Source: Labilithrix sp. (GTDB taxonomy: Bacteria; Myxococcota_A; Polyangia; Polyangiales; Polyangiaceae). From it: a stretch of 32,000 bases of DNA. A model generated the notes under the pieces. The model was not told the origin of the DNA, searched no databases, and worked only from the letters and a program-made list of their open reading frames with translations. The DNA is taken from positions 5,341 through 37,340 of the forward strand of contig JAHBWD010000035.1 in the NCBI GenBank assembly GCA_019637175.1, in the 5' to 3' direction. Of the stretch, positions 14,758-23,621 are shown piece after piece. How positions within the stretch are numbered: position 1 is the first letter of the stretch; each line of letters begins with the position of its first letter. A program made the translations under genes and the position numbers.

Positions 14758-14831
14758 GGGACGCTAGCTCAATCGGAACGAGCACCGGGCTTTTACCCCG
14801 AGGGATGAGGGTTCGACTCCCTCGCGTCCCA
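14758..14831 (+). tRNA. tRNA-Lys(TTT)
   Basis: Acceptor gggacgc/gcgtccc. D stem gctc/gagc. Anticodon loop ctTTTac. T-loop ttcgact. No encoded CCA. Confidence 0.8.
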
Positions 14832-14887
14832 CAGCCTCCGTCCGTCTTCTCTCTCTCGTTCACGCGCTCTCACGAGCGCGCGATCGC

Positions 14888-14961
14888 GGGTCCGTAGCGC
14901 AACCGGCAAGCGCACTCGACTCTTAATCGAGGTGGTGAGGGTTCGAGTCCCTCCGGACCTA
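14888..14961 (+). tRNA. tRNA-Lys(CTT)
   Basis: Acceptor gggtccg/cggacct. Anticodon stem ctcga/tcgag, loop ctCTTaa. T-loop ttcgagt. Confidence 0.8.
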
Positions 14962-14984
14962 CGGGCGACGTCCGTCGCCGACAC

Positions 14985-15059
14985 TCCGGGATCGTCTAGC
15001 TGGCAGGACACTGGCCTCTGAACCCAGAAACACAGGTTCGAATCCTGTGCCCGGAACCA
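14985..15059 (+). tRNA. tRNA-Gln(CTG)
   Basis: Acceptor tccggga/gcccgga (7-66 mismatch). Loop ctCTGaa. T-loop ttcgaat. CCA encoded. Confidence 0.65.
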
Positions 15060-15163
15060 AGGCTCTCCTCTTTCGAGGGAGCCCTCGCTCTCTGAAAACT
15101 TGGCGCCAATCGACTCGTCCGCGCGCGCGGAGCGCGAGCTTCACGCTCGCGGGCGAGTCTCAT

Positions 15164-15236
15164 TCCAGCGAAGCCGAATGGTCAGGCAGCCGGCTGTTAA
15201 CCGGTCCCTTCGAAGGTTCGATTCCTTCCGCTGGAG
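15164..15236 (+). tRNA. tRNA-Asn(GTT)
   Basis: Acceptor tccagcg/cgctgga. Anticodon stem gccgg/ccggt, loop ctGTTaa. T-loop ttcgatt. Confidence 0.75.
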
Positions 15237-15239
15237 CTC

Positions 15240-15371
15240 TCGCCCTCTCGGCAGAGGCCCTACACGCACCTGGTGATGCTGGTTCGACTCCAGCCCACGG
15301 CTTCGGCCGCGGTCGTCCAACGGCAGGACCCCCGAATGTCAATCGGAACGACGGCTTCTCCACTCGGGCGA
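15240..15371 (+). ncRNA. structured module A: permuted tRNA-like RNA (candidate Y RNA)
   Basis: Closing stem tcgccc/gggcga. Box ccctacacgca at 15258-15268. The order is then: T-arm gctgg-ttcgact-ccagc; acceptor 3' strand ccacggc; ttcg loop; acceptor 5' strand gccgcgg; D-arm gtcc/ggac; hairpin with loop atGTCaa. Confidence 0.5.
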
Positions 15372-15376
15372 AAACT

Positions 15377-15447
15377 GCCCATGTAACTCGATGGTCGAGC
15401 ACCCGCCTCGTACGCGGTGTGAGCCGGTTCGACTCCGGACGTGGGCT
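15377..15447 (+). tRNA. tRNA-Thr(CGT)
   Basis: Acceptor gcccatg/cgtgggc. Loop ctCGTac. T-loop ttcgact. Confidence 0.7.
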
Positions 15448-15452
15448 CTCGT

Positions 15453-15618
15453 TTCATCCACCCGAACAGACCCTACACGCAAAAACAAAGTTGGTTCGAC
15501 TCCAACCGCCTACCCCGACGGCCCTGCAAGGCCGTCTCGCATCACGGTGGGCGTAGCCTAACGGTAAGGCAATCGTTTATTGGACGATAATCCCACCCGG
15601 TTTGCTCACTCGGATGGA
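15453..15618 (+). ncRNA. structured module B: permuted tRNA-like RNA (candidate Y RNA)
   Basis: Closing stem ttcatcc/ggatgga. Box ccctacacgca. T-arm gttgg-ttcgact-ccaac. An 8-bp acceptor-like stem cgcctacc/ggtgggcg is capped by a 31-nt insert containing its own hairpin. D-arm gcc/ggc. Hairpin atcgt-ttattgg-acgat. Confidence 0.5.
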
Positions 15619-15796
15619 ACGCATCCTCTCCCCGCCGCGTACGGCGGGTCCCCTTTCAATCCGGCCGCTATAACGTTGCGCCTCGCGCGCAGCCCCGCCG
15701 TCGGATCCTGCCCCGCCGCGAGCTTCGTCGGCGCGGGTCTCGTCTCATCAGGAGGCTGGCGCGTGAGCGCAAGCCGCGCCGCCTCCGACCTCTTCC

Positions 15797-15868
15797 GCCC
15801 ACGCAGCTCGAGAGCCGAGCGTCCTGGCTTGTACCCAGGAAGATCTGGTGCGACTCCAGACGTGGGCT
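15797..15868 (+). tRNA. tRNA-Thr(TGT), non-canonical elbow
   Basis: Acceptor gcccacg/cgtgggc. Anticodon stem cctgg/ccagg, loop ctTGTac. T-loop tgcgact (G55). D-loop gagagcc lacks GG. Confidence 0.6.
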
Positions 15869-15883
15869 CCGCCGAAATCCTCT

Positions 15884-15958
15884 ACCCCCGTCATCTAGCG
15901 GCAAGGAGCTCCGTCTTTCAATCGGAGGGCGTCGGTTCGAATCCGATCGGGGGTGCCA
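15884..15958 (+). tRNA. tRNA-Glu(TTC)
   Basis: Acceptor acccccg/cgggggt. Loop ctTTCaa. T-loop ttcgaat. CCA encoded. Weak D stem. Confidence 0.7.
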
Positions 15959-16034
15959 GGGCTGTGAGCTGGTCGCAGGATAGCGTCTGCCTGAAGAGCA
16001 GAAGAACGTGGTGCAAGCCCACGACAGCCCACCA
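15959..16034 (+). tRNA. tRNA-Phe(GAA)
   Basis: Starts directly after the preceding CCA. Acceptor gggctgt/acagccc. Anticodon stem tctgc/gcaga, loop ctGAAga. T-loop tgcaagc (G55). CCA encoded. Confidence 0.7.
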
Positions 16035-16116
16035 TCGAAAGCTCGATATCGTCGATATCGAAGAACGACGAACATCGCACTTGCAAAGTGAGGTAGCGAG
16101 ACACATATGAATGTAC

Positions 16117-16189
16117 GGTGGCGTTACTCGTCTAGTGACGAGGACTGGCCGTGACCCAGTGGAGGCGGGTGCAATCCCCGTACGTCACC
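16117..16189 (+). tRNA. tRNA-His(GTG) with G-1, C33 and G55
   Basis: G-1 lies opposite C73. Acceptor gtggcgt/acgtcac. Anticodon stem actgg/ccagt, loop ccGTGac. T-loop tgcaatc. D-loop tctagtga. Confidence 0.7.
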
Positions 16190-16326
16190 CCTCAGCCGCC
16201 GAGCTTCGTTCGGCGACTTCGTCCCTCTCTCGTGGGAGCTTCGCTCCCCTCATCGGCGAAGCCGATGAGCCTCCTCTCCTTCGCCTGCGGCGAAACCGAG
16301 CTTCGCTCGGCAGGAGAGGCATCCAG

Positions 16327-16398
16327 GTCCTCGTGGCCGAGCGGATAGGCAGCGGTTTCCTAAACCGCCACAGGCAGGTTCGAGTCCTGCCGGGGACG
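16327..16398 (+). tRNA. tRNA-Arg(CCT)
   Basis: Acceptor gtcctcg/cggggac. Anticodon stem gcggt/accgc, loop ttCCTaa. T-loop ttcgagt. Confidence 0.75.
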
Positions 16399-16423
16399 CG
16401 ACACGCAACGAAACGATTCTCAC

Positions 16424-16495
16424 GCCTCGTGATGCGCCCGGCGGCGCAACCCCACTGTCTATGGGACGAGACGGGTTCGACTCCCGTACGAGGCG
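16424..16495 (+). tRNA. tRNA-Asp(GTC)
   Basis: Acceptor gcctcgt/acgaggc. D stem tgcg/cgca. Loop ctGTCta. T-loop ttcgact. Confidence 0.75.
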
Positions 16496-16501
16496 CTGCA
16501 T

Positions 16502-16575
16502 GCGTCGCAGAGTCATGGTGACCGGCCGAGCCTCCAAAACTCGGAGAGAGGGTTCGATTCCTTCGCGACGTGCCA
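16502..16575 (+). tRNA. tRNA-Trp(CCA)
   Basis: Acceptor gcgtcgc/gcgacgt. Loop ctCCAaa with a 31-39 C-A mismatch. T-loop ttcgatt. CCA encoded. Poor D-arm. Confidence 0.65.
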
Positions 16576-16588
16576 GAGGTGACCGTTC

Positions 16589-16792
16589 ATGACGACCTGC
16601 ACCTTCTGCTCGGGCCCCGCGCATCCCTCCACGGGCTGCGTGTACGGACCGAGAACCCTCGCGTGCCGCGCGTGCACCGTCCGCTTCTGGACGTGGCTCC
16701 GCCAGCACGTGAACAAGGCTCCTCGCCGCCGCCCTGGCCGCGTGGTCCCTTCCCTCACGTTCTACGAGGCCGCCACGAAGTGGCGAGCCTAG
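16589..16792 (+). CDS. small Cys-rich (zinc-ribbon-like) hypothetical protein
   Basis: 67 aa. CxxC...C...CxxC pattern (CTFC, C17, CRAC). GAGGTG Shine-Dalgarno-like sequence about 8 nt upstream of the ATG. Sits between tRNA-Trp and tRNA-Ala. Confidence 0.55.
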   Translation: MTTCTFCSGPAHPSTGCVYGPRTLACRACTVRFWTWLRQHVNKAPRRRPGRVVPSLTFYEAATKWRA

Positions 16793-16816
16793 GCCGACGG
16801 ACCTCCGCGGCCATCT

Positions 16817-16890
16817 GGGGCGGTATTTCAATAGGAGAATTCTGCTCTCGCACAGCAGGGATCGGGGTGCAATTCCCCGTCGCTCCACCA
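16817..16890 (+). tRNA. tRNA-Ala(CGC)
   Basis: Acceptor ggggcgg/tcgctcc with G3-U70. Anticodon stem ctgct/agcag, loop ctCGCac. T-loop tgcaatt (G55). CCA encoded. Confidence 0.7.
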
Positions 16891-16902
16891 GACATCACGA
16901 AT

Positions 16903-16975
16903 GGGGTCGTAGCTCAGCCAGGAGAGCATCTCGATGGCATCGAGAAGGTTGCCGGTGCAATTCCGGTCGACTCCA
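16903..16975 (+). tRNA. tRNA-Ala(GGC)
   Basis: Acceptor ggggtcg/cgactcc with G3-U70. Anticodon stem tctcg/cgaga, loop atGGCat. T-loop tgcaatt (G55). Confidence 0.75.
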
Positions 16976-17003
16976 CGAAGTACATATTCACGAATACCCA
17001 TAC

Positions 17004-17078
17004 GCTGGCATCGTCCAAGAGTGAGGACCTCAGTCTTCCAAACTGATGATGAGGGTGCGAATCCCTCTGCCCGCTCCA
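17004..17078 (+). tRNA. tRNA-Gly(TCC)
   Basis: Acceptor gctggca/tgcccgc (3-70 mismatch). D stem gtcc/ggac with loop aagagtga. Loop ctTCCaa. T-loop tgcgaat (G55). U73 and CCA present. Confidence 0.7.
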
Positions 17079-17231
17079 CTCTCCTCTTCCCCTGCTCTTC
17101 TGGCCCCGGCGCGCTCCGCGCGACGGTTCGCCGAAGGCGAAAGGGGGGAGGACTCCACGCGCAGCGTGGAGGGGGGACGCAGTCCCCCACGAGACAGAAG
17201 GAAACGAGAGCGCGCAGCGCTCTCGCTTTTC

Positions 17232-17302
17232 GAGCCGATTCTCTGAGAGGTCCGTGGTCTGCAAAACCGCGTATGAGGGTTTGATTCCCTCTCGGCTCTC
17301 CA
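17232..17302 (+). tRNA. tRNA-Cys(GCA)
   Basis: Acceptor gagccga/tcggctc. Anticodon stem gtggt/accgc, loop ctGCAaa. T-loop tttgatt (U56). U73 and CCA present. Weak D-arm. Confidence 0.65.
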
Positions 17303-17322
17303 AAAAGGAAATCATGACGAGC

Positions 17323-17395
17323 GGATCACGACGGGATGGTTACCCTGGGCTCTCTGATAAGGAGCCTGCACCGTGTTCGATTCACGGGTGATCCA
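17323..17395 (+). tRNA. tRNA-Ile(GAT)
   Basis: Acceptor ggatcac/gtgatcc. D stem cggg/cctg. Loop ctGATaa. T-loop ttcgatt. Confidence 0.8.
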
Positions 17396-17415
17396 CGACG
17401 AGCTCCACGAGAGAT

Positions 17416-17488
17416 GCGGCGCTGGCGGTCTAGTGACTGCGCTTGCTCGACAAGCAGGAACAGGCGGGTGCGATCCCCGCGCGCCGTA
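17416..17488 (+). tRNA. tRNA-Val(GAC) with C33 and G55
   Basis: Acceptor gcggcgc/gcgccgt. D stem gcgg/ctgc with loop tctagtga. Anticodon stem cttgc/gcagg, loop tcGACaa. T-loop tgcgatc. Confidence 0.65.
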
Positions 17489-17495
17489 CCGAGAG

Positions 17496-17567
17496 CTGGG
17501 CATAGTTCAGAGGCCAGATCACTCCCCTCGGAAGGGAGAGACGGAGGTTCGAGTCCTCCTGCCCAGA
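17496..17567 (+). tRNA. tRNA-Pro(CGG)
   Basis: C1-G72 acceptor ctgggca/tgcccag. Anticodon stem ctccc/gggag, loop ctCGGaa. T-loop ttcgagt. A73. Confidence 0.8.
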
Positions 17568-17577
17568 CTGATTTCAC

Positions 17578-17650
17578 GCCGATGTAGCCCAATAGGCAGA
17601 GGTACCCGTCTCAGAAACGGGGGGTGAGGGTTCGAATCCCTCCTTCGGCA
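17578..17650 (+). tRNA. class-I (short variable loop) tRNA with Leu anticodon CAG
   Basis: Acceptor gccgatg/cttcggc (6-67 mismatch). D-arm gcccaataggcagagg. Anticodon stem cccgt/acggg, loop ctCAGaa. Only 4-5 nt variable region. T-loop ttcgaat. A73. Confidence 0.55.
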
Positions 17651-17666
17651 CTACGTCTCTCGAAAT

Positions 17667-17750
17667 GTCACCGTGGTGGAACGGCATACACACCAGCTTG
17701 AGGTGCTGGGCTCCCTACGGAGTGTGAGGGTTCGAATCCCTCCGGTGACA
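17667..17750 (+). tRNA. tRNA-Leu(GAG), class II
   Basis: Acceptor gtcaccg/cggtgac. Anticodon stem ccagc/gctgg, loop ttGAGgt. Long variable arm ctcc-ctac-ggag. T-loop ttcgaat. Confidence 0.8.
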
Positions 17751-17843
17751 CTACTGGCGCGCGCATCCCCGAAACGACTCTTCTCTGCTGATCCCGAACC
17801 TTGCTCCTCGAAGGAGATGAAAGTGAAAAAGCGAAGGTGACCC

Positions 17844-18377
17844 ATGCAAACGCTGATGCTGACCCCGTGGATGGCGCCGCACAAGATCATCTCGTGGCAA
17901 CGCGCCGTCGTTCTCGCGTACCTCGGCAAGGTCGAGGTCATCGAGACTTGGGACTGCGATCTCCGCGGCCCCAGCGTCTCGATGAAGGCGCCGTCCGTCG
18001 TGCGTCTCACGAAGGGGTCGGTCTCGACGAAGCAGTCGGTGCGCTTCTCGCGCATCAACGTCTTCACGCGTGACAAGTTCCGCTGCCAGTACTGCGGCGA
18101 GCGGAAGCCCATCAAGCAACTGAACTACGACCACGTGATCCCGCGCGTGCGCGGCGGAAAGACGGTCTGGGAGAACATCGTCACTTCCTGCTACGCGTGC
18201 AACGATCGCAAGGGGAGCCGCACTCCCGAGGAGGCCGGCATGAAGCTGCTCCGCAAGCCGCTCAAGCCGGACACCCTCCCCGTGGTGCCGCCGATCCGCC
18301 TCGACGAGGGTGACCTGCCCGAGCAATGGGAGCCGTACTGCGGCGACCTGGCTCGGCTGATGTCCCTCTCGGCGTGA
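17844..18377 (+). CDS. HNH endonuclease (small McrA-like family)
   Basis: 177 aa. CQYCG...YDHVIPRVRGGKTVWENIVTSCYACNDRK, an HNH/ββα-Me motif with two CxxC pairs. AAGGTGA Shine-Dalgarno upstream of the ATG. Confidence 0.85.
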   Translation: MQTLMLTPWMAPHKIISWQRAVVLAYLGKVEVIETWDCDLRGPSVSMKAPSVVRLTKGSVSTKQSVRFSRINVFTRDKFRCQYCGERKPIKQLNYDHVIPRVRGGKTVWENIVTSCYACNDRKGSRTPEEAGMKLLRKPLKPDTLPVVPPIRLDEGDLPEQWEPYCGDLARLMSLSA

Positions 18378-18460
18378 AAGCGCTGCGCCCGTCATCCGAC
18401 GTGCGCTCCCGCGTCCTGGCCCAAGACGAAATAAACTGGGCCTCCTATTCTTCAAACGAT

Positions 18461-18535
18461 CAGGGCGTAGCTTAGCCTGGCAAAAGCGTCAGTCTGGGGG
18501 ACTGAAGAGCGCAGGTTCGAATCCTGCCGTCCTGA
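18461..18535 (+). tRNA. tRNA-Pro(GGG)
   Basis: Acceptor cagggcg/cgtcctg. D stem gctt/aagc. Anticodon stem tcagt/actga, loop ctGGGgg. T-loop ttcgaat. Confidence 0.8.
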
Positions 18536-18548
18536 CTACGTCGATATC

Positions 18549-18631
18549 GGAAGGTACATCCGCGAGGCGCGGAGATCGCCTGGAACGCGATTCGCACCGC
18601 CAGGTGCGAGGTTCGAGTCCTCTGCCTTCCT
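18549..18631 (+). tRNA. tRNA-Ser(GGA), class II
   Basis: Acceptor ggaaggt/gccttcc. Anticodon stem atcgc/gcgat, loop ctGGAac. Variable arm cacc-gcca-ggtg. T-loop ttcgagt. Confidence 0.7.
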
Positions 18632-18656
18632 CTGCTCTCGACTGCATCCTCGAAAC

Positions 18657-18741
18657 GGAAGAGAAACTGGCTGGGAGCCAGGACTGCCTCGAAAGCAGTA
18701 CGCACCTTCACGGGTGTGGGGTTCGAGACCTCTCTCTTCCT
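18657..18741 (+). tRNA. tRNA-Ser(CGA), class II
   Basis: Acceptor ggaagag/ctcttcc. D stem ctgg/ccag. Anticodon stem actgc/gcagt, loop ctCGAaa. Long variable arm. T-loop ttcgaga. Confidence 0.7.
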
Positions 18742-18758
18742 CTCTCGCCTCTCTTTTT

Positions 18759-18831
18759 CTCCTTGCTGGTGGCTCCAGGCATTGGTCTACGAAGCCGATT
18801 TTCCCAGGTTCGATTCCTGGCAGGGAGACCA
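18759..18831 (+). pseudogene. degenerate tRNA-like element (anticodon arm not foldable)
   Basis: Good acceptor ctccttg/cagggag, T-arm ccagg-ttcgatt-cctgg and CCA. The anticodon arm pairs poorly and the variable region is only 2-3 nt. Confidence 0.4.
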
Positions 18832-18838
18832 ACGATTT

Positions 18839-18973
18839 CGATCGCCCATCCCGAACGTGCCTACAAGCAACCGTCCTGAAAAGACGGGGAACACGAAACG
18901 TCCGAGCCCTCGAAGCGTCGAGCGCTCCGACGTTTCGTGATCCCTCCCAACGCACGATCGACTCGGGCGATCG
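18839..18973 (+). ncRNA. structured module C (box-containing, no T-arm)
   Basis: 9-bp closing stem cgatcgccc/gggcgatcg. atcccgaac plus box cctacaagcaa. Anticodon-arm-like hairpin ccgtc-ctgaaaa-gacgg. A 15-bp hairpin at 18892-18939. Confidence 0.45.
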
Positions 18974-18980
18974 CAAAAAT

Positions 18981-19053
18981 ACCTTCGTCCTGGCGGAATC
19001 CAGGCGCGAGCCTCCGAAGCTCGTTGCTCCCGGTTCGACTCCGGGCGGAGGTG
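18981..19053 (+). tRNA. tRNA-Arg(CCG)
   Basis: Acceptor accttcg/cggaggt. D stem ctgg/ccag with a 6-nt loop. Anticodon stem cgagc/gctcg, loop ctCCGaa. T-loop ttcgact. Confidence 0.7.
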
Positions 19054-19057
19054 CTGA

Positions 19058-19132
19058 CGCAGCGTGGGGGAGGAGCGACCCCGCGAGGTTCATGTCCTCG
19101 AGACGCCGGTGCGACTCCGGCCGCTGCTACCA
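19058..19132 (+). tRNA. tRNA-Met(CAT), 1-72 mismatch (initiator-like?)
   Basis: Acceptor cgcagcg/cgctgct with C1 opposite U72. D stem gggg/cccc. Anticodon stem cgagg/cctcg, loop ttCATgt. T-loop tgcgact (G55). CCA encoded. Confidence 0.65.
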
Positions 19133-19134
19133 AG

Positions 19135-19262
19135 GTCATCCAAATACGCCGAGCCTACACGCAACTTGATTCGTCCAATGGATAGGACATCAGCCTCCTA
19201 AGCTGAGCGTCTGGGTTCGAGTCCCAGATCAACCCCCCTCGCGCTCGTCGATCTCGGATGAC
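19135..19262 (+). ncRNA. structured module D: box plus normal-order tRNA-Arg(CCT)-like core (candidate Y RNA)
   Basis: Perfect 7-bp closing stem gtcatcc/ggatgac. Box cctacacgcaa abuts position 3 of a tRNA-like core at 19164-19235 (D stem gtcc/ggac, loop ctCCTaa, T-arm ctggg-ttcgagt-cccag). The core retains only 5 acceptor base pairs. Confidence 0.5.
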
Positions 19263-19270
19263 CTTCCTAT

Positions 19271-19347
19271 GTTTCCGTCGTCTAGACGGCCAAGGACACC
19301 CGCCTCTCAAGTGGGTAACACGGGTTCGAATCCCGTCGGAAACGCCA
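19271..19347 (+). tRNA. tRNA-Glu(CTC)
   Basis: Acceptor gtttccg/cggaaac. Anticodon stem cccgc/gtggg, loop ctCTCaa. T-loop ttcgaat. CCA encoded. Confidence 0.8.
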
Positions 19348-19392
19348 AACCCCAACATCCACGCCCACCACTGGCCCAGAAAGGAGAGAACC

Positions 19393-20982
19393 ATGGCAAA
19401 CAAGCAGCTATTCGCGAGCCCGCGACCGGACGCCGTCAACGAAGCCGGCGGCTTGGCCTACGCGTTCTCTCCCGAGCACGCGCTCGCCCAGTACGCCGCG
19501 ACCGGCACGTTCCACGGGACGTTCTACGCCAGCGACAAAGAGCAGCTCGATCGCGTGTCCGCGTTTGCCAGCGCGTGCTCGCCCGAGCTCGTCGCCAAGA
19601 CCGCCGTCTACTGTCGCGAGCGCGGCAGGATGAAGGACATGCCGGCGTTCCTCGTCGCCCACCTCGCGGCCCGCGACACCGCGATGATGAGCCGGGTGTT
19701 CGCTCGGGTCATCGACGACGGCGTCATGCTCCGCAACTTCGTGCAGATCGTCCGCTCGGGCGTCACCGGCCGAAAGTCGTTCGGCTCGGCCCCCAAGCGC
19801 GCGCTCCGTGCGTGGTTCGCGAGCCGCTCGCCCGACGCGATTTTTCGTCAGTCCATCGGTCAGAGCCCGTCCATGTCGGACGTCATCAAGATGGTTCGCC
19901 CTCCCCCGCGGAACGACAAGGGCGAAGCCGATGCCGTTCGTGAGGCCCTCTACGGCTACCTCATCGGAAAGAACGTGGATCCGGACAAGCTCCCCGCGCT
20001 CGCGCGCGCCTTCGAGGCGTGGAAGCGCAGGACCGGCGGCCTGCCCGACGTGCCCTTCGAGATGCTCACCTCGCTCCCCTTGAGCGCGGAAGACTGGAAG
20101 GCGCTCGCGCGTCGGATGACGACGAATCAGCTCCGGATCAACCTCAACACGCTCCTCCGTCACGGCGTCCTCGACGACCCCGAGATGGTGGACTCCGTGG
20201 CGGCCCGCCTGTCGGACCGCGAGGCGATCCTCCGGGCGCGCATGATGCCGTTCCAGCTCCTCGCCGCGTATCGCGGCGTCGAGGCGCGGATGCCGACGCG
20301 CATCGTCACGGCGATCGCGACGGCGCTCGAGCACGCGGTGTCGAACGTCCCCGAGCTCGTCGGGCGCGTCGTGCTCTGCCCCGACGTGTCGGGATCGATG
20401 CAGTCGCCCGTGACGGGTCACCGCGGGAGCGCGACCACGAAGGTGCGCTGCGTCGACGTCGCGGCCCTCGTGACCGCGGCGATCCTCCGGAAGAACCCGG
20501 GCTCGTCGGTCATTCCGTTCTCCGACGACGTGGTCCCGATGACGAAGCCTCTCGATCCGGGCGGCTCGATCGTCGAGAACGCGGAGATCCTCGCGAGCCT
20601 CCCGAGCGGCGGCACCGCTTGCTCGGCGCCGCTCCGCTGGCTCAACGCGAACGGGAACGCGCCCGACGTCGTCGTCTTCGTCTCGGACAACCAGTCGTGG
20701 TCGGACTTCCGACACCCTTCGCGATCCGCCACGAGCGGCACCGCGATGGCGGAGGAGTGGCAACGCCTTCGGGGCAGGAACCCGAACGCCAAGCTGATCC
20801 TCGTCGACGTCCAGCCCTACGGCACGACGCAGAGCACCTCGCGCGACGCCAAGGGCGAGCGCGACGACGTGCTCGACGTCGGCGGGTTCTCCGACGCGGT
20901 CTTCGACGTCGTCGCGTCGTTCACGCGCGGCGAGCTCGGCGGAGACACGTGGCTTCGCGCGATCGAATCGATCGCGCTCTAG
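19393..20982 (+). CDS. rsr: Ro60-related TROVE-domain / vWA protein (Rsr)
   Basis: 529 aa from MANKQLFAS. The N-terminus is TROVE-like (NEAGGLAYAFSPEHALAQYAATGTFHGTFY). C-terminal vWA MIDAS motif CPDVSGSM. AAGGAGAG Shine-Dalgarno at 19381-19388. Confidence 0.85.
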   Translation: MANKQLFASPRPDAVNEAGGLAYAFSPEHALAQYAATGTFHGTFYASDKEQLDRVSAFASACSPELVAKTAVYCRERGRMKDMPAFLVAHLAARDTAMMSRVFARVIDDGVMLRNFVQIVRSGVTGRKSFGSAPKRALRAWFASRSPDAIFRQSIGQSPSMSDVIKMVRPPPRNDKGEADAVREALYGYLIGKNVDPDKLPALARAFEAWKRRTGGLPDVPFEMLTSLPLSAEDWKALARRMTTNQLRINLNTLLRHGVLDDPEMVDSVAARLSDREAILRARMMPFQLLAAYRGVEARMPTRIVTAIATALEHAVSNVPELVGRVVLCPDVSGSMQSPVTGHRGSATTKVRCVDVAALVTAAILRKNPGSSVIPFSDDVVPMTKPLDPGGSIVENAEILASLPSGGTACSAPLRWLNANGNAPDVVVFVSDNQSWSDFRHPSRSATSGTAMAEEWQRLRGRNPNAKLILVDVQPYGTTQSTSRDAKGERDDVLDVGGFSDAVFDVVASFTRGELGGDTWLRAIESIAL

Positions 20983-21061
20983 CGATCGAGACAACGCGGC
21001 AAATGCCCGCGAGGGTTACATCCTCGGGAAAACCACCTTCGCGACCTTCGTTGCCGCCCTT

Positions 21062-21117
21062 GCTCCTCCTCACGAAAGGTCTTCACGGGAGCTCATTGAG
21101 GAGGAGCCATTCTTTTT
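21062..21117 (+). terminator. hairpin plus T-run downstream of rsr
   Basis: 11-bp stem gctcctcctca/tgaggaggagc with a 24-nt loop, followed by cattcttttt. The next tRNA starts 2 nt later. Confidence 0.6.
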
Positions 21118-21118
21118 C

Positions 21119-21191
21119 GCCGTCCACGCCCAGAGAGCGGGGCACCTCACTGGTAGCGAGGACAAGGAGGGTGCGAGTCCCTCGGACGGCT
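21119..21191 (+). tRNA. tRNA-Thr(GGT)
   Basis: Acceptor gccgtcc/ggacggc. D stem gccc/gggc with loop agagagcg. Loop ctGGTag. T-loop tgcgagt (G55). Confidence 0.7.
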
Positions 21192-21202
21192 CGAATCGTT
21201 TT

Positions 21203-21276
21203 GCGGTGATAGTTCAAGAGTAGAACCTGAGCACGCCACGCTCGAAATCCGGGTGCGATTCCCGGTCACCGCTCCA
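21203..21276 (+). tRNA. tRNA-Gly(GCC) with C33 and G55
   Basis: Acceptor gcggtga/tcaccgc. D stem gttc/gaac with loop aagagta. Anticodon stem tgagc/gctcg, loop acGCCac. T-loop tgcgatt. U73 and CCA present. Confidence 0.65.
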
Positions 21277-21339
21277 GCGCCGAGTCCCCTGCCGTTCACC
21301 GGAGAAGGTGTCGTCGGGGGGCCACGCGCTTCCACTCTT

Positions 21340-21412
21340 CGCTGCGCTCCTGGGCAGGACGACGGGCTTCATATGCCTGCGCGCGACGGCTCGACTCCGT
21401 CCGCAGCGACCA
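21340..21412 (+). tRNA. tRNA-Met/Ile2(CAT), aberrant D-arm
   Basis: Acceptor cgctgcg/cgcagcg. Anticodon stem cgggc/gcctg, loop ttCATat. T-loop ctcgact (C54). CCA encoded. The D region is only 14 nt. Confidence 0.55.
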
Positions 21413-21418
21413 CGACAT

Positions 21419-21490
21419 ACCGGAGTGTTCCAAGGGCAGGATCGGCGGCTTTGAACCGCTCGAGTGGGGGTTCGAATCCCTCCTCCGGTG
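21419..21490 (+). tRNA. tRNA-Gln(TTG)
   Basis: Acceptor accggag/ctccggt. Anticodon stem ggcgg/ccgct, loop ctTTGaa. T-loop ttcgaat. Confidence 0.75.
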
Positions 21491-21497
21491 CGAACGC

Positions 21498-21573
21498 GCG
21501 GGGCGCGCCGTCTGGCGACGGCATCTGCATCACAAGCAGCGCAAGGAGAGTTCGATCCTCTCGCCCCGTACCA
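21498..21573 (+). tRNA. tRNA-Val(CAC)
   Basis: Acceptor gcggggc/gccccgt. D stem gccg/cggc. Loop atCACaa. T-loop ttcgatc. CCA encoded. Confidence 0.75.
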
Positions 21574-21595
21574 CGAATGGAAGATTGGTCTTCGA

Positions 21596-21671
21596 GTCGA
21601 CGTAGCCCAACGGCAGAGGCAGCACGCTCAAACCGTGCGTGATGGGGGTTCGAATCCCTCGGTCGACACCA
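21596..21671 (+). tRNA. class-I (short variable loop) tRNA with Leu anticodon CAA
   Basis: Acceptor gtcgacg/ggtcgac (7-66 mismatch). D-arm gcccaacggcagaggc. Anticodon stem gcacg/cgtgc, loop ctCAAac. 5-nt variable loop. T-loop ttcgaat. A73 and CCA present. Confidence 0.55.
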
Positions 21672-21813
21672 TGGGTTCGAATCCCATGAAGCACCTCGCG
21701 AGGACGCCGGCGCGTCACGCGGAAGCCTCGAGCAGCGGCCTGTTACGCCGCACACGCTCGAGGGCCTTCTCCGCGCGACGTCCGCTCGTCGTTTCCGCAG
21801 CGAGATCCGCTTG

Positions 21814-21956
21814 CTGGTTGCCAGTCGCGCGACTGAAACTCGTGCACGTGTTTGACGCAGGTTCGAATCCTGTCGCCCGCACCGCTCGCTCGCGCGAGCC
21901 CTCCGAAATCATGCGGGCGTAGCTCAGCTAGGTAGAGCAACAGACTGTTAATCTGA
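21814..21956 (+). ncRNA. module E: third permuted tRNA-like locus
   Basis: The order is: hairpin cgcga-ctgaaac-tcgtg; T-arm gcagg-ttcgaat-cctgt; 3' strand cgcccgc; 32-nt cap; perfectly complementary 5' strand gcgggcg; D-arm gctc/gagc; hairpin acaga-ctgttaa-tctga. Confidence 0.4.
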
Positions 21957-22215
21957 AAACGAAGTCGGCGAAGGAAGTCACCCCCCTCTCGAGAGAGAGG
22001 CGCGCTCCCGTCCCGCGATCGAAGCCGCCCTGCCGCAGCTCCGCGGTCGTCCCTCGAAGACCACCGCGAAGCGCCGGCCGACGCCCCTCGATCGCTCGCC
22101 GGCGAGCACGTCGCCCGAACGTGATGGCTTCGAGGCGTTCACGTTCTTGGGTGCCTTCCTTCGAAGGCTCTCCTCCTTCTCTTCTCTTCTCATCTCCTCC
22201 AAGAGGCCACCCACC

Positions 22216-23533: not shown

Positions 23534-23621
23534 GGATCGGACGCGGTACTGGCTGGCCGCACGTGGCTGTAACCCACGTTCTTTCACGACACTGGGGGTT
23601 CGAATCCCTCCCGATCCACCA
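23534..23621 (+). tRNA. tRNA-Tyr(GTA), class II
   Basis: Acceptor ggatcgg/ccgatcc. D stem gcgg/ccgc. Anticodon stem cgtgg/ccacg, loop ctGTAac. Long variable region. T-loop ttcgaat. A73 and CCA present. Confidence 0.85.

Follow-up and report, generated by a model that had tools for sequence, protein, structure and literature searches.

The locus studied here raises the question of what is encoded by a sequence in which the parts of a tRNA stand in permuted order, within an array of tRNA genes and downstream of rsr. It lies in a window of 32,000 nt from Labilithrix sp. (contig JAHBWD010000035.1, positions 5,341-37,340, forward strand), this being the whole stretch of DNA analysed, which is chromosomal DNA of about 70% G+C. 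The original prediction had offered two explanations, a diverged relative of two other permuted modules of the same array (A and B) or a scar left by recombination within a tRNA gene; it mentioned rsr but made no link to the described YrlA class of Y RNA.

The rsr gene (19393-20982, + strand) encodes Ro60/Rsr, the protein partner of Y RNA: the product matches Pfam vWA_Ro60 (1.4e-18) and TROVE (4.6e-6) and aligns over the full length with Rsr of D. radiodurans (PDB 2NVO, E 3.4e-21); the start codon was placed at the ATG after the ribosome-binding site AAGGAGAG. The nearest Rsr relatives are 56-82% identical and are all from Labilithrix, Polyangiaceae or Myxococcota metagenome-assembled genomes. 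ARAGORN located 31 tRNA genes in the window, 30 of them within 14758-21671 and a tRNA-Tyr at 23534, and the array is interrupted by rsr and also contains an HNH endonuclease gene (17844-18377). The element under study is found ~850 nt 3′ of rsr on the same strand (+). The order tRNA-Glu(CUC), rsr, tRNA-like element, tRNA-Gly, further tRNAs, element under study, SPFH/Band-7 gene and tRNA-Tyr is kept in the closest relatives.

Other features of this region were also recorded (L numbers designate related loci). Directly 3′ of the rsr stop codon, 20988-21066 forms a long hairpin with GGCAAAUGC in its 5′ strand and a pyrimidine-rich loop, which is more stable than shuffled sequences (z = −2.9), gives a weak match to Rfam YrlB (18.6 bits, E 5) and is a YrlB-like candidate for a second Y RNA. 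A tRNA-Thr(GGU)-like gene (21113-21190; acceptor GCCGUCC/GGACGGC, T loop UGCGAGU) was missed by ARAGORN and Rfam here and is called tRNA-Thr in L001; it is 80-93% identical in 22 of the 36 related loci and better conserved than rsr. The U at position 55 of the T loop is near-universal in tRNAs; several tRNAs of the array, Ala(CGC) and Gly(GCC) among them (16863-16879, 21249-21265 and others), showed T loops UGCAA or UGCGA, with G at this position. The spacer between tRNA-Gly and tRNA-Gln (21277-21418) is about 78% conserved and aligns to an ARAGORN tRNA-Met in L001, L016 and L018, and its motif GCCGUUCACCGG...GGUGUCGUCGG recurs after rsr in L002, L018 and L019. The HNH gene has a parallel in Myxococcus phage Mx1 (OR576727), in which a Ro homolog (43.5% identity) is found amid tRNA genes together with an HNH gene, a likeness that hints at phage-host exchange of the island; no clear YrlA was detected within 8 kb of the phage Ro homolog, the sole match being junction-like, at 36 bits. 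Ro and Y RNA are unmentioned in two papers on tRNA arrays (PMC5966550, PMC4758250).

All the strings quoted in the original prediction are present base for base, and its central observation, that the two acceptor strands are perfect 7-mer complements in 3′-then-5′ order, was confirmed. The part resembling the 3′ third of a tRNA precedes the 5′ part, in the order T arm, CGCCCGC, 32-nt spacer, GCGGGCG, UA, D arm and a hairpin with a 7-nt loop, all on the + strand, as are the flanking features described below. The T arm GCAGG-UUCGAAU-CCUGU occupies 21857-21873 (stem strands 21857-61 and 21869-73, loop 21862-68), with C21856, just 5′ of it, at the position of C48. The 3′ strand of the acceptor-like stem (CGCCCGC, 21874-21880) forms 7/7 pairs with the 5′ strand (GCGGGCG, 21913-21919). 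The spacer that closes this stem (21881-21912) starts with ACC (21881-83), in which CC follows a base resembling a discriminator, and its remaining 29 nt include a hairpin GCUCGC-UCGC-GCGAGC (21884-99) containing the palindrome gctcgcgcgagc (21888-99). A U8-A9 linker (21920-21) leads into the D arm GCUC-AGCUAGGUA-GAGC (21922-38; linker and arm together 21920-21938), which is identical to the near-invariant D arm of YrlA. The nucleotides needed for the tertiary contacts of a tRNA are found as well (U8, A14, G15/C48, GG18-19 and UUC in the T loop). After A21939, which sits between the two arms, comes the anticodon-arm-like hairpin acaga-ctgttaa-tctga; it is present at 21940-21956, where the original prediction had placed it, but only four of its five stem positions pair (CAGA/UCUG, 21941-44/21952-55, loop CUGUUAA), the outer A.A (positions 27/43) being unpaired.

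In the minimum-energy fold the whole is enclosed by a closing stem of 9 bp with one bulge, formed by UCGC-G-CGACU (21825-21834) and AGUCG-GCGA (21963-21971); Rfam YrlA puts its outer helix at the 5′ strand, in which CGAC stands for the CGAA core of the Rsr-binding motif. The CGAC/GUCG helix recurs in the RNAalifold consensus of five orthologs, with some cells broken. The upstream hairpin proposed originally (cgcga-ctgaaac-tcgtg) does have its complementarity at 21828-44; it shares nucleotides with the closing stem's 5′ strand (21825-34/21963-71) and excludes this stem, which the minimum-energy fold prefers. The same fold contains, as the alternative to that upstream hairpin, a V-region hairpin AAAC.CG....CG.GUUU (21836-21853), the counterpart of the YrlA ‘V’ stem-loop (PMC4201824), and a hairpin of other sequence is found at this position in L001, L015, L016 and L025. 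In the window, UGUU (21849-52) could also pair with AACA (21939-42) to give a long-range ‘anticodon stem’; L026 does not keep this pairing, the local hairpin is in competition with it, and it was left only as an alternative conformation. The fold of the element is not stabler than that of shuffled sequence (z = −0.28), which is common for GC-rich sequence and leaves the value uninformative. A promoter/terminator scan of the locus predicted none.

The same element was located by a pattern scan and by a covariance model (R1) of the T arm, closed acceptor stem and D arm, which ends before the anticodon-like hairpin. It was found 150-900 nt 3′ of rsr in L001, L015, L016/L017, L026, L025, L010 (two copies) and L011, and is present downstream of rsr in at least eight other distinct sequences; the close relatives L002 and L019 are without it. 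The acceptor-like stems differ among loci and are all paired (CGCCCGC/GCGGGCG, CAGCCCC/GGGGCUG, CACCCCC/GGGGGUG, CAGUUCC/GGGACUG, AGGAUCC/GGAUUCU and CCACUUC/GAAGCGG). In an alignment of 18 modules 99% of the cells were paired, a value that is partly due to construction since the modules were picked with a filter requiring pairing, which does not affect the diversity of the stems in this way. Compensatory changes were observed in 13 of the 16 pairs, including all seven acceptor pairs. The observed level of covariation was reached by 0 of 500 shuffles, and slid registers dropped to 31-46% paired.

Y RNAs are obligatory partners of Ro60, and to our knowledge the bacterial ones have been characterised in three species only. 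YrlA, a tRNA-like Y RNA found beside Ro60 genes in >250 bacteria and phages, is composed of a 5′ Rsr-binding motif, an optional V stem-loop, a T arm and a loop-closed acceptor-like stem followed by the D arm, and is expected on the same strand as rsr and <4 kb from it (Chen et al. 2014, PMC4201824); it has already been characterised as resembling circularly permuted tRNAs (PMC4201824; bioRxiv 10.1101/312249). Further marks of the class (RF02553; Chen et al. 2014) are a stem joining the two RNA ends, binding by Rsr and modification by TruB and DusA. In a permissive scan of 4.7 kb the Rfam YrlA model (RF02553) matched 21829-21971 end to end with 41.8 bits (E 5.2e-7), which is below the curated gathering threshold of 69 bits, and all the myxobacterial homologs score under this threshold (33-63 bits). 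The element shows the T and then the D stem-loop with a stem-loop (AS) between them, the AS being 7/7 paired, and it is located within about 4 kb of the Ro60/Rsr gene on the same strand. In the middle helix of the Rfam model three of seven positions are non-pairs at the element. The GNCGAAN0-1G motif, the proposed Rsr contact, is unmatched, the nearest string being CGCGACUG (21828-35; 6/8, with CGAC replacing CGAA), and the CUAC (YUAY) motif is absent. The former motif is matched fully by L025 (GACGAAUG) and L010a (GGCGAAUG), and L026 has GUCCGAAG. In L010 and L011 the elements have the 5′ motifs of canonical YrlA, GGCGAAUGC...GGACUACA, and reach 57-63 bits with Rfam YrlA (best 62.9). Given the E value of the Rfam match, and given that the element recurs at this site in independent genomes and that 7/7 of its acceptor-like pairs show compensatory changes, the arrangement lies far outside what chance would give. 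We assign a probability of about 0.85 to the reading of the locus as a gene for a YrlA-class Y RNA, a tRNA-mimicking non-coding RNA partner of the Ro60 orthologue Rsr. Judged by its sequence, the locus is a conserved RNA gene of a known class, and this copy is a structural variant with a complete cloverleaf and a 7-bp acceptor stem. We infer that the element is expressed and bound by Rsr, and predict its processing.

Conservation extends beyond the element on both sides. Upstream it reaches to about 21776, where the block 21776-21824 aligns with L001, L015 and L016 and may belong to the 5′ region of the RNA or its precursor. Downstream, the conserved block 21972-22025 contains GAAGGAAGUCAC, which is Shine-Dalgarno-like but without a start codon, a covarying hairpin CCUCUC-GAGA-GAGAGG (21985-22000) and the 12-mer GTCCCGCGATCG (22010-21), invariant in five orthologs; no Rfam family matches this block. 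Since the flank comparison rests on just five distinct close orthologs, the closing stem and the RNA ends are tentative, and since conservation extends past the element on both sides, the transcript may be longer or linked to the SPFH gene; the block 21972-22025 could be a 3′ extension of the RNA or a leader of that gene. The whole element could be read as a tRNA-like cis-regulatory leader of the downstream SPFH/Band-7 gene instead of a free-standing Y RNA. The order of element and SPFH gene is indeed kept in L001, L015 and L016/17, the identity past GTCCCGCGATCG is about 70% up to the start codon, and a terminator was looked for between the element and the SPFH gene and none was found. However, the element tracks rsr and not SPFH: the canonical homologs of L010, L011 and L025 have no SPFH gene after them, L019 and L022 have an SPFH gene without the element, and the distance from the element to the ATG is 245 nt, so that we regard the leader reading as improbable.

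An origin in recombination or deletion between two tRNAs of the array, which would have left the 3′ third of one beside the 5′ two-thirds of another as a decayed, functionless scar, was the second explanation of the original prediction. It is in line with the position of the locus within a 31-tRNA array, with the ACC at the start of the spacer, which is like a tRNA 3′ end, and with the tandem tRNA pairs of related arrays, whose near-identical acceptors mimic the architecture at 43-47 bits. The same-position orthologs of L001, L015, L016/17 and L026 nevertheless have other acceptor sequences that are still 7/7 paired, and a one-off scar is excluded because the relatives carry the element after rsr with differing, always complementary stems. 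The conserved flanks, moreover, form the closing stem, and the D arm fits the YrlA consensus and no local tRNA. Comparison of each half with the 30 tRNAs of the window gave best values of 31/44 and 24/30, which is generic similarity, so that a local parent was rejected; an exact match of the 5′ half was sought in the 36 related loci and in viral contigs, and none was found. The original prediction had also suggested a search of the genome for an intact tRNA-Asn(GTT) with acceptor gcgggcg/cgcccgc as a test of a rearranged duplicate; within the window, the tRNA-Asn(GTT) has the acceptor TCCAGCG. A scar is therefore very improbable.

The hairpin that follows the D arm bears on a further reading, in which the locus is a true circularly permuted or split tRNA gene maturing into a decoding tRNA-Asn(GUU). 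It is present in the minimum-energy folds and in the RNAalifold consensus of five orthologs, and its stem is CAGA/UCUG in the window, L001, L015 and L016, CAGGU/ACCUG in L026 and CCGG/CCGG in L025, that is, three distinct stems in six rsr-downstream orthologs, with the 7-nt loop kept. Among 31 modules, 19 have such a hairpin (25 when 6-8-nt loops are allowed), against a mean of 3.4 expected and a maximum of 11 in 2000 sets of random genomic 30-mers; this is an independent test, since R1 ends before the hairpin and the hairpin was not used for choosing modules. The three canonical YrlAs are without it. Because the hairpin is kept, the Rsr stem leaves the cloverleaf at the variable-arm position and does not replace the anticodon arm. 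The four arms, the 7-nt loop with U33 and A37 and the 7-bp acceptor stem with ACC speak for such a tRNA, and the 2018 structure paper raised the possibility that some YrlAs are processed to look more tRNA-like (bioRxiv 10.1101/312249). Against this, the loop triplet varies among orthologs (GUU, GUA, GGU), so no anticodon is conserved and the tRNA-Asn identity originally proposed falls; in addition, positions 27/43 are an A.A mismatch, the break lies in the variable region with extensions of about 30 nt on either side, and the window already has a normal tRNA-Asn(GTT), at 15164. The folds contain no BHB-like helix, and we know of no bacterial splicing endonuclease for bulge-helix-bulge motifs. 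A decoding tRNA is thus even less probable than a scar. A canonical tRNA gene was rejected given the permuted arm order, the lack of an ARAGORN call and an Rfam tRNA match without T arm. A two-piece (permuted) tmRNA was rejected also, ARAGORN finding none and Rfam giving only T-arm-level matches in L001 and L026 (24-27 bits against the thresholds of 70 and 84 of two tmRNA families).

An ordinary tRNA gene with a long insertion (21913-22017), which the Rfam tRNA score of 29.8 bits, just over the threshold of 29, might suggest, has negligible probability, as the Rfam alignment has a 40-nt insert in place of the T arm and an imperfect acceptor, ARAGORN calls nothing here, and the downstream GUCCCGCG is invariant in orthologs while the 5′ acceptor strand changes, so that the two do not pair.

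The first explanation of the original prediction, a diverged relative of modules A and B, was borne out: one R1 model matched the element, A and B with 60.7, 57.0 and 61.2 bits, respectively, the noise from tRNA-tRNA junctions being ≤35 bits. Modules A (15252-15363) and B (15472-~15640) have the same permuted order and both show an anticodon-like hairpin; their sequences place them in the same lineage-specific family as the element. The absence from the element of the CCTACACGCA box, also reported originally, was verified, exact copies being found at 15259, 15472 and 19154 only; the third of these directly abuts tRNA-Arg(CCU) (19164-19237) and not a permuted module. The conserved CUAC (YUAY) motif of YrlA is present within the CCUACACGCA box of modules A and B, the flanks of these modules (...CCCGAAGA...CCCUACACGCA upstream and ...GGCUUCUCCACUCGGG downstream) can form a Y-RNA-like closing stem, and module A gives 25.1 bits with Rfam YrlA. 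Modules of the A/B type occur in L003-L008 and L013 in 2-4 copies each, 4-7 kb upstream of rsr, as a multi-copy family in rsr-linked tRNA arrays, with diverse acceptor stems and many long spacers starting N-CC. The tandem tRNA duplicates with a shared acceptor are located at 5090 in L003, 6463 in L004, 5972 in L005, 6116 in L006 and 6753 in L007 (R1 43-47 bits); in these, pairing is possible between the first copy's 3′ end and the second copy's 5′ end, the literal ‘dimeric tRNA’ arrangement, of the type proposed as YrlA ancestor.

N-CC comes after the 3′ acceptor strand in 15 of the 31 modules, whereas the background frequency of CC is 8.6% (p 9e-9), and it goes with long spacers. Only one YrlA with a 7-bp stem has been characterised, that of M. 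smegmatis; in vivo it is cleaved by RNase P and acquires CCA, and Rsr retains the two halves (PMC4201824). On the model of this RNA, the 7-bp stem, the encoded ACC and the long spacer of the element lead to a prediction of RNase P cleavage and CCA completion. RNase P would cut between U21912, the −1 position of the predicted site, and G21913. Trimming would leave an upstream piece ending in ACC, to which an A would be added (3′ end ...CGCCCGC-ACCA), and the product would be a two-piece, CCA-tailed tRNA mimic still on Rsr. We give processing in the M. smegmatis manner somewhat less than an even chance.

As a YrlA-class Y RNA, the element would probably be transcribed jointly with neighbouring tRNA genes on the rsr strand. 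The transcript would fold into a tRNA-like L, with an elbow made of the T and D arms and with the spacer closing the acceptor-like stem, and the 5′ and 3′ flanks would pair to a stem bearing the putative Rsr-binding site. By homology, the tRNA-like module would tether the stem-bound Rsr to an effector; in Deinococcus and Salmonella this effector is PNPase. A broader proposal is that Labilithrix-type myxobacteria possess a distinct Y RNA subclass, a complete four-arm cloverleaf permuted at the variable arm in 2-4 copies per rsr-linked tRNA array, whose long-spacer members, the element included, would be opened by RNase P and CCA-tailed, giving potentially aminoacylatable two-piece mimics tethered to Rsr, and which would represent living intermediates of the origin of YrlA from dimeric tRNA transcripts; this we consider a rather unlikely conjecture.

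Every myxobacterial Y RNA copy found here falls below the Rfam threshold, and annotation misses them as a result. In addition, the tRNA calls at 21913-22017 and 15546-15638 (the latter an ARAGORN ‘tRNA-Asn(ATT)’ due to module B) are spurious, being artefacts of YrlA-type modules. The modules described are still tRNA-like, with four arms, a 7-bp acceptor stem and an encoded N-CC, and they lie amid genuine tRNA genes and tandem duplicates of tRNAs. The model that derives YrlA from dimeric tRNA transcripts (cited in bioRxiv 10.1101/312249) predicts just this picture. The locus is a natural test case for whether Y RNAs can be processed, CCA-tailed or charged like tRNAs.

Among the known systems, the permuted tRNA genes of Cyanidioschyzon and other algae (PMC3978253) share with the element a 3′ half placed before the 5′ half and an intervening sequence that closes the acceptor stem and that RNase P/Z can open; the algal genes give rise to decoding tRNAs through a bulge-helix-bulge endonuclease and a circular intermediate, whereas the element is without a BHB motif and without a conserved anticodon. 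Yrn1 and Yrn2 of Deinococcus radiodurans are likewise Rsr-linked Y RNAs co-transcribed with a tRNA, and Yrn1 can be drawn with an anticodon-like arm, but they differ from the element by another permutation. Orthologs L001 and L016 carry the 5′ string GGCUGGUGCCCGAC, which we take to resemble the metazoan-type hY RNA 5′ end GGCUGGUCCGA. With YrlA (RF02553; PMC4201824; PDB 6CU1, bioRxiv 10.1101/312249) the element shares the location near rsr on the same strand, the order of 5′ stem strand, V region, T arm, closed acceptor-like stem, UA, D arm and 3′ stem strand, the near-invariant D arm, the conserved T arm and the tRNA tertiary-contact bases. It differs in its sub-threshold Rfam score, in CGAC replacing CGAA of GNCGAAN0-1G, in having no CUAC (YUAY), in the 32-nt acceptor loop with a hairpin of its own and in its position inside a tRNA array with two paralogous modules; moreover, the S. 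Typhimurium YrlA ‘lacks the anticodon loop’, whereas the element keeps an anticodon-arm-like hairpin. The Mycobacterium smegmatis YrlA (PMC4201824) differs in that its gene lies upstream of rsr, and not downstream as here, and in that its processing is demonstrated, that of the element being predicted; the two have in common the 7-bp acceptor stem and the encoded C or CC after its 3′ strand.
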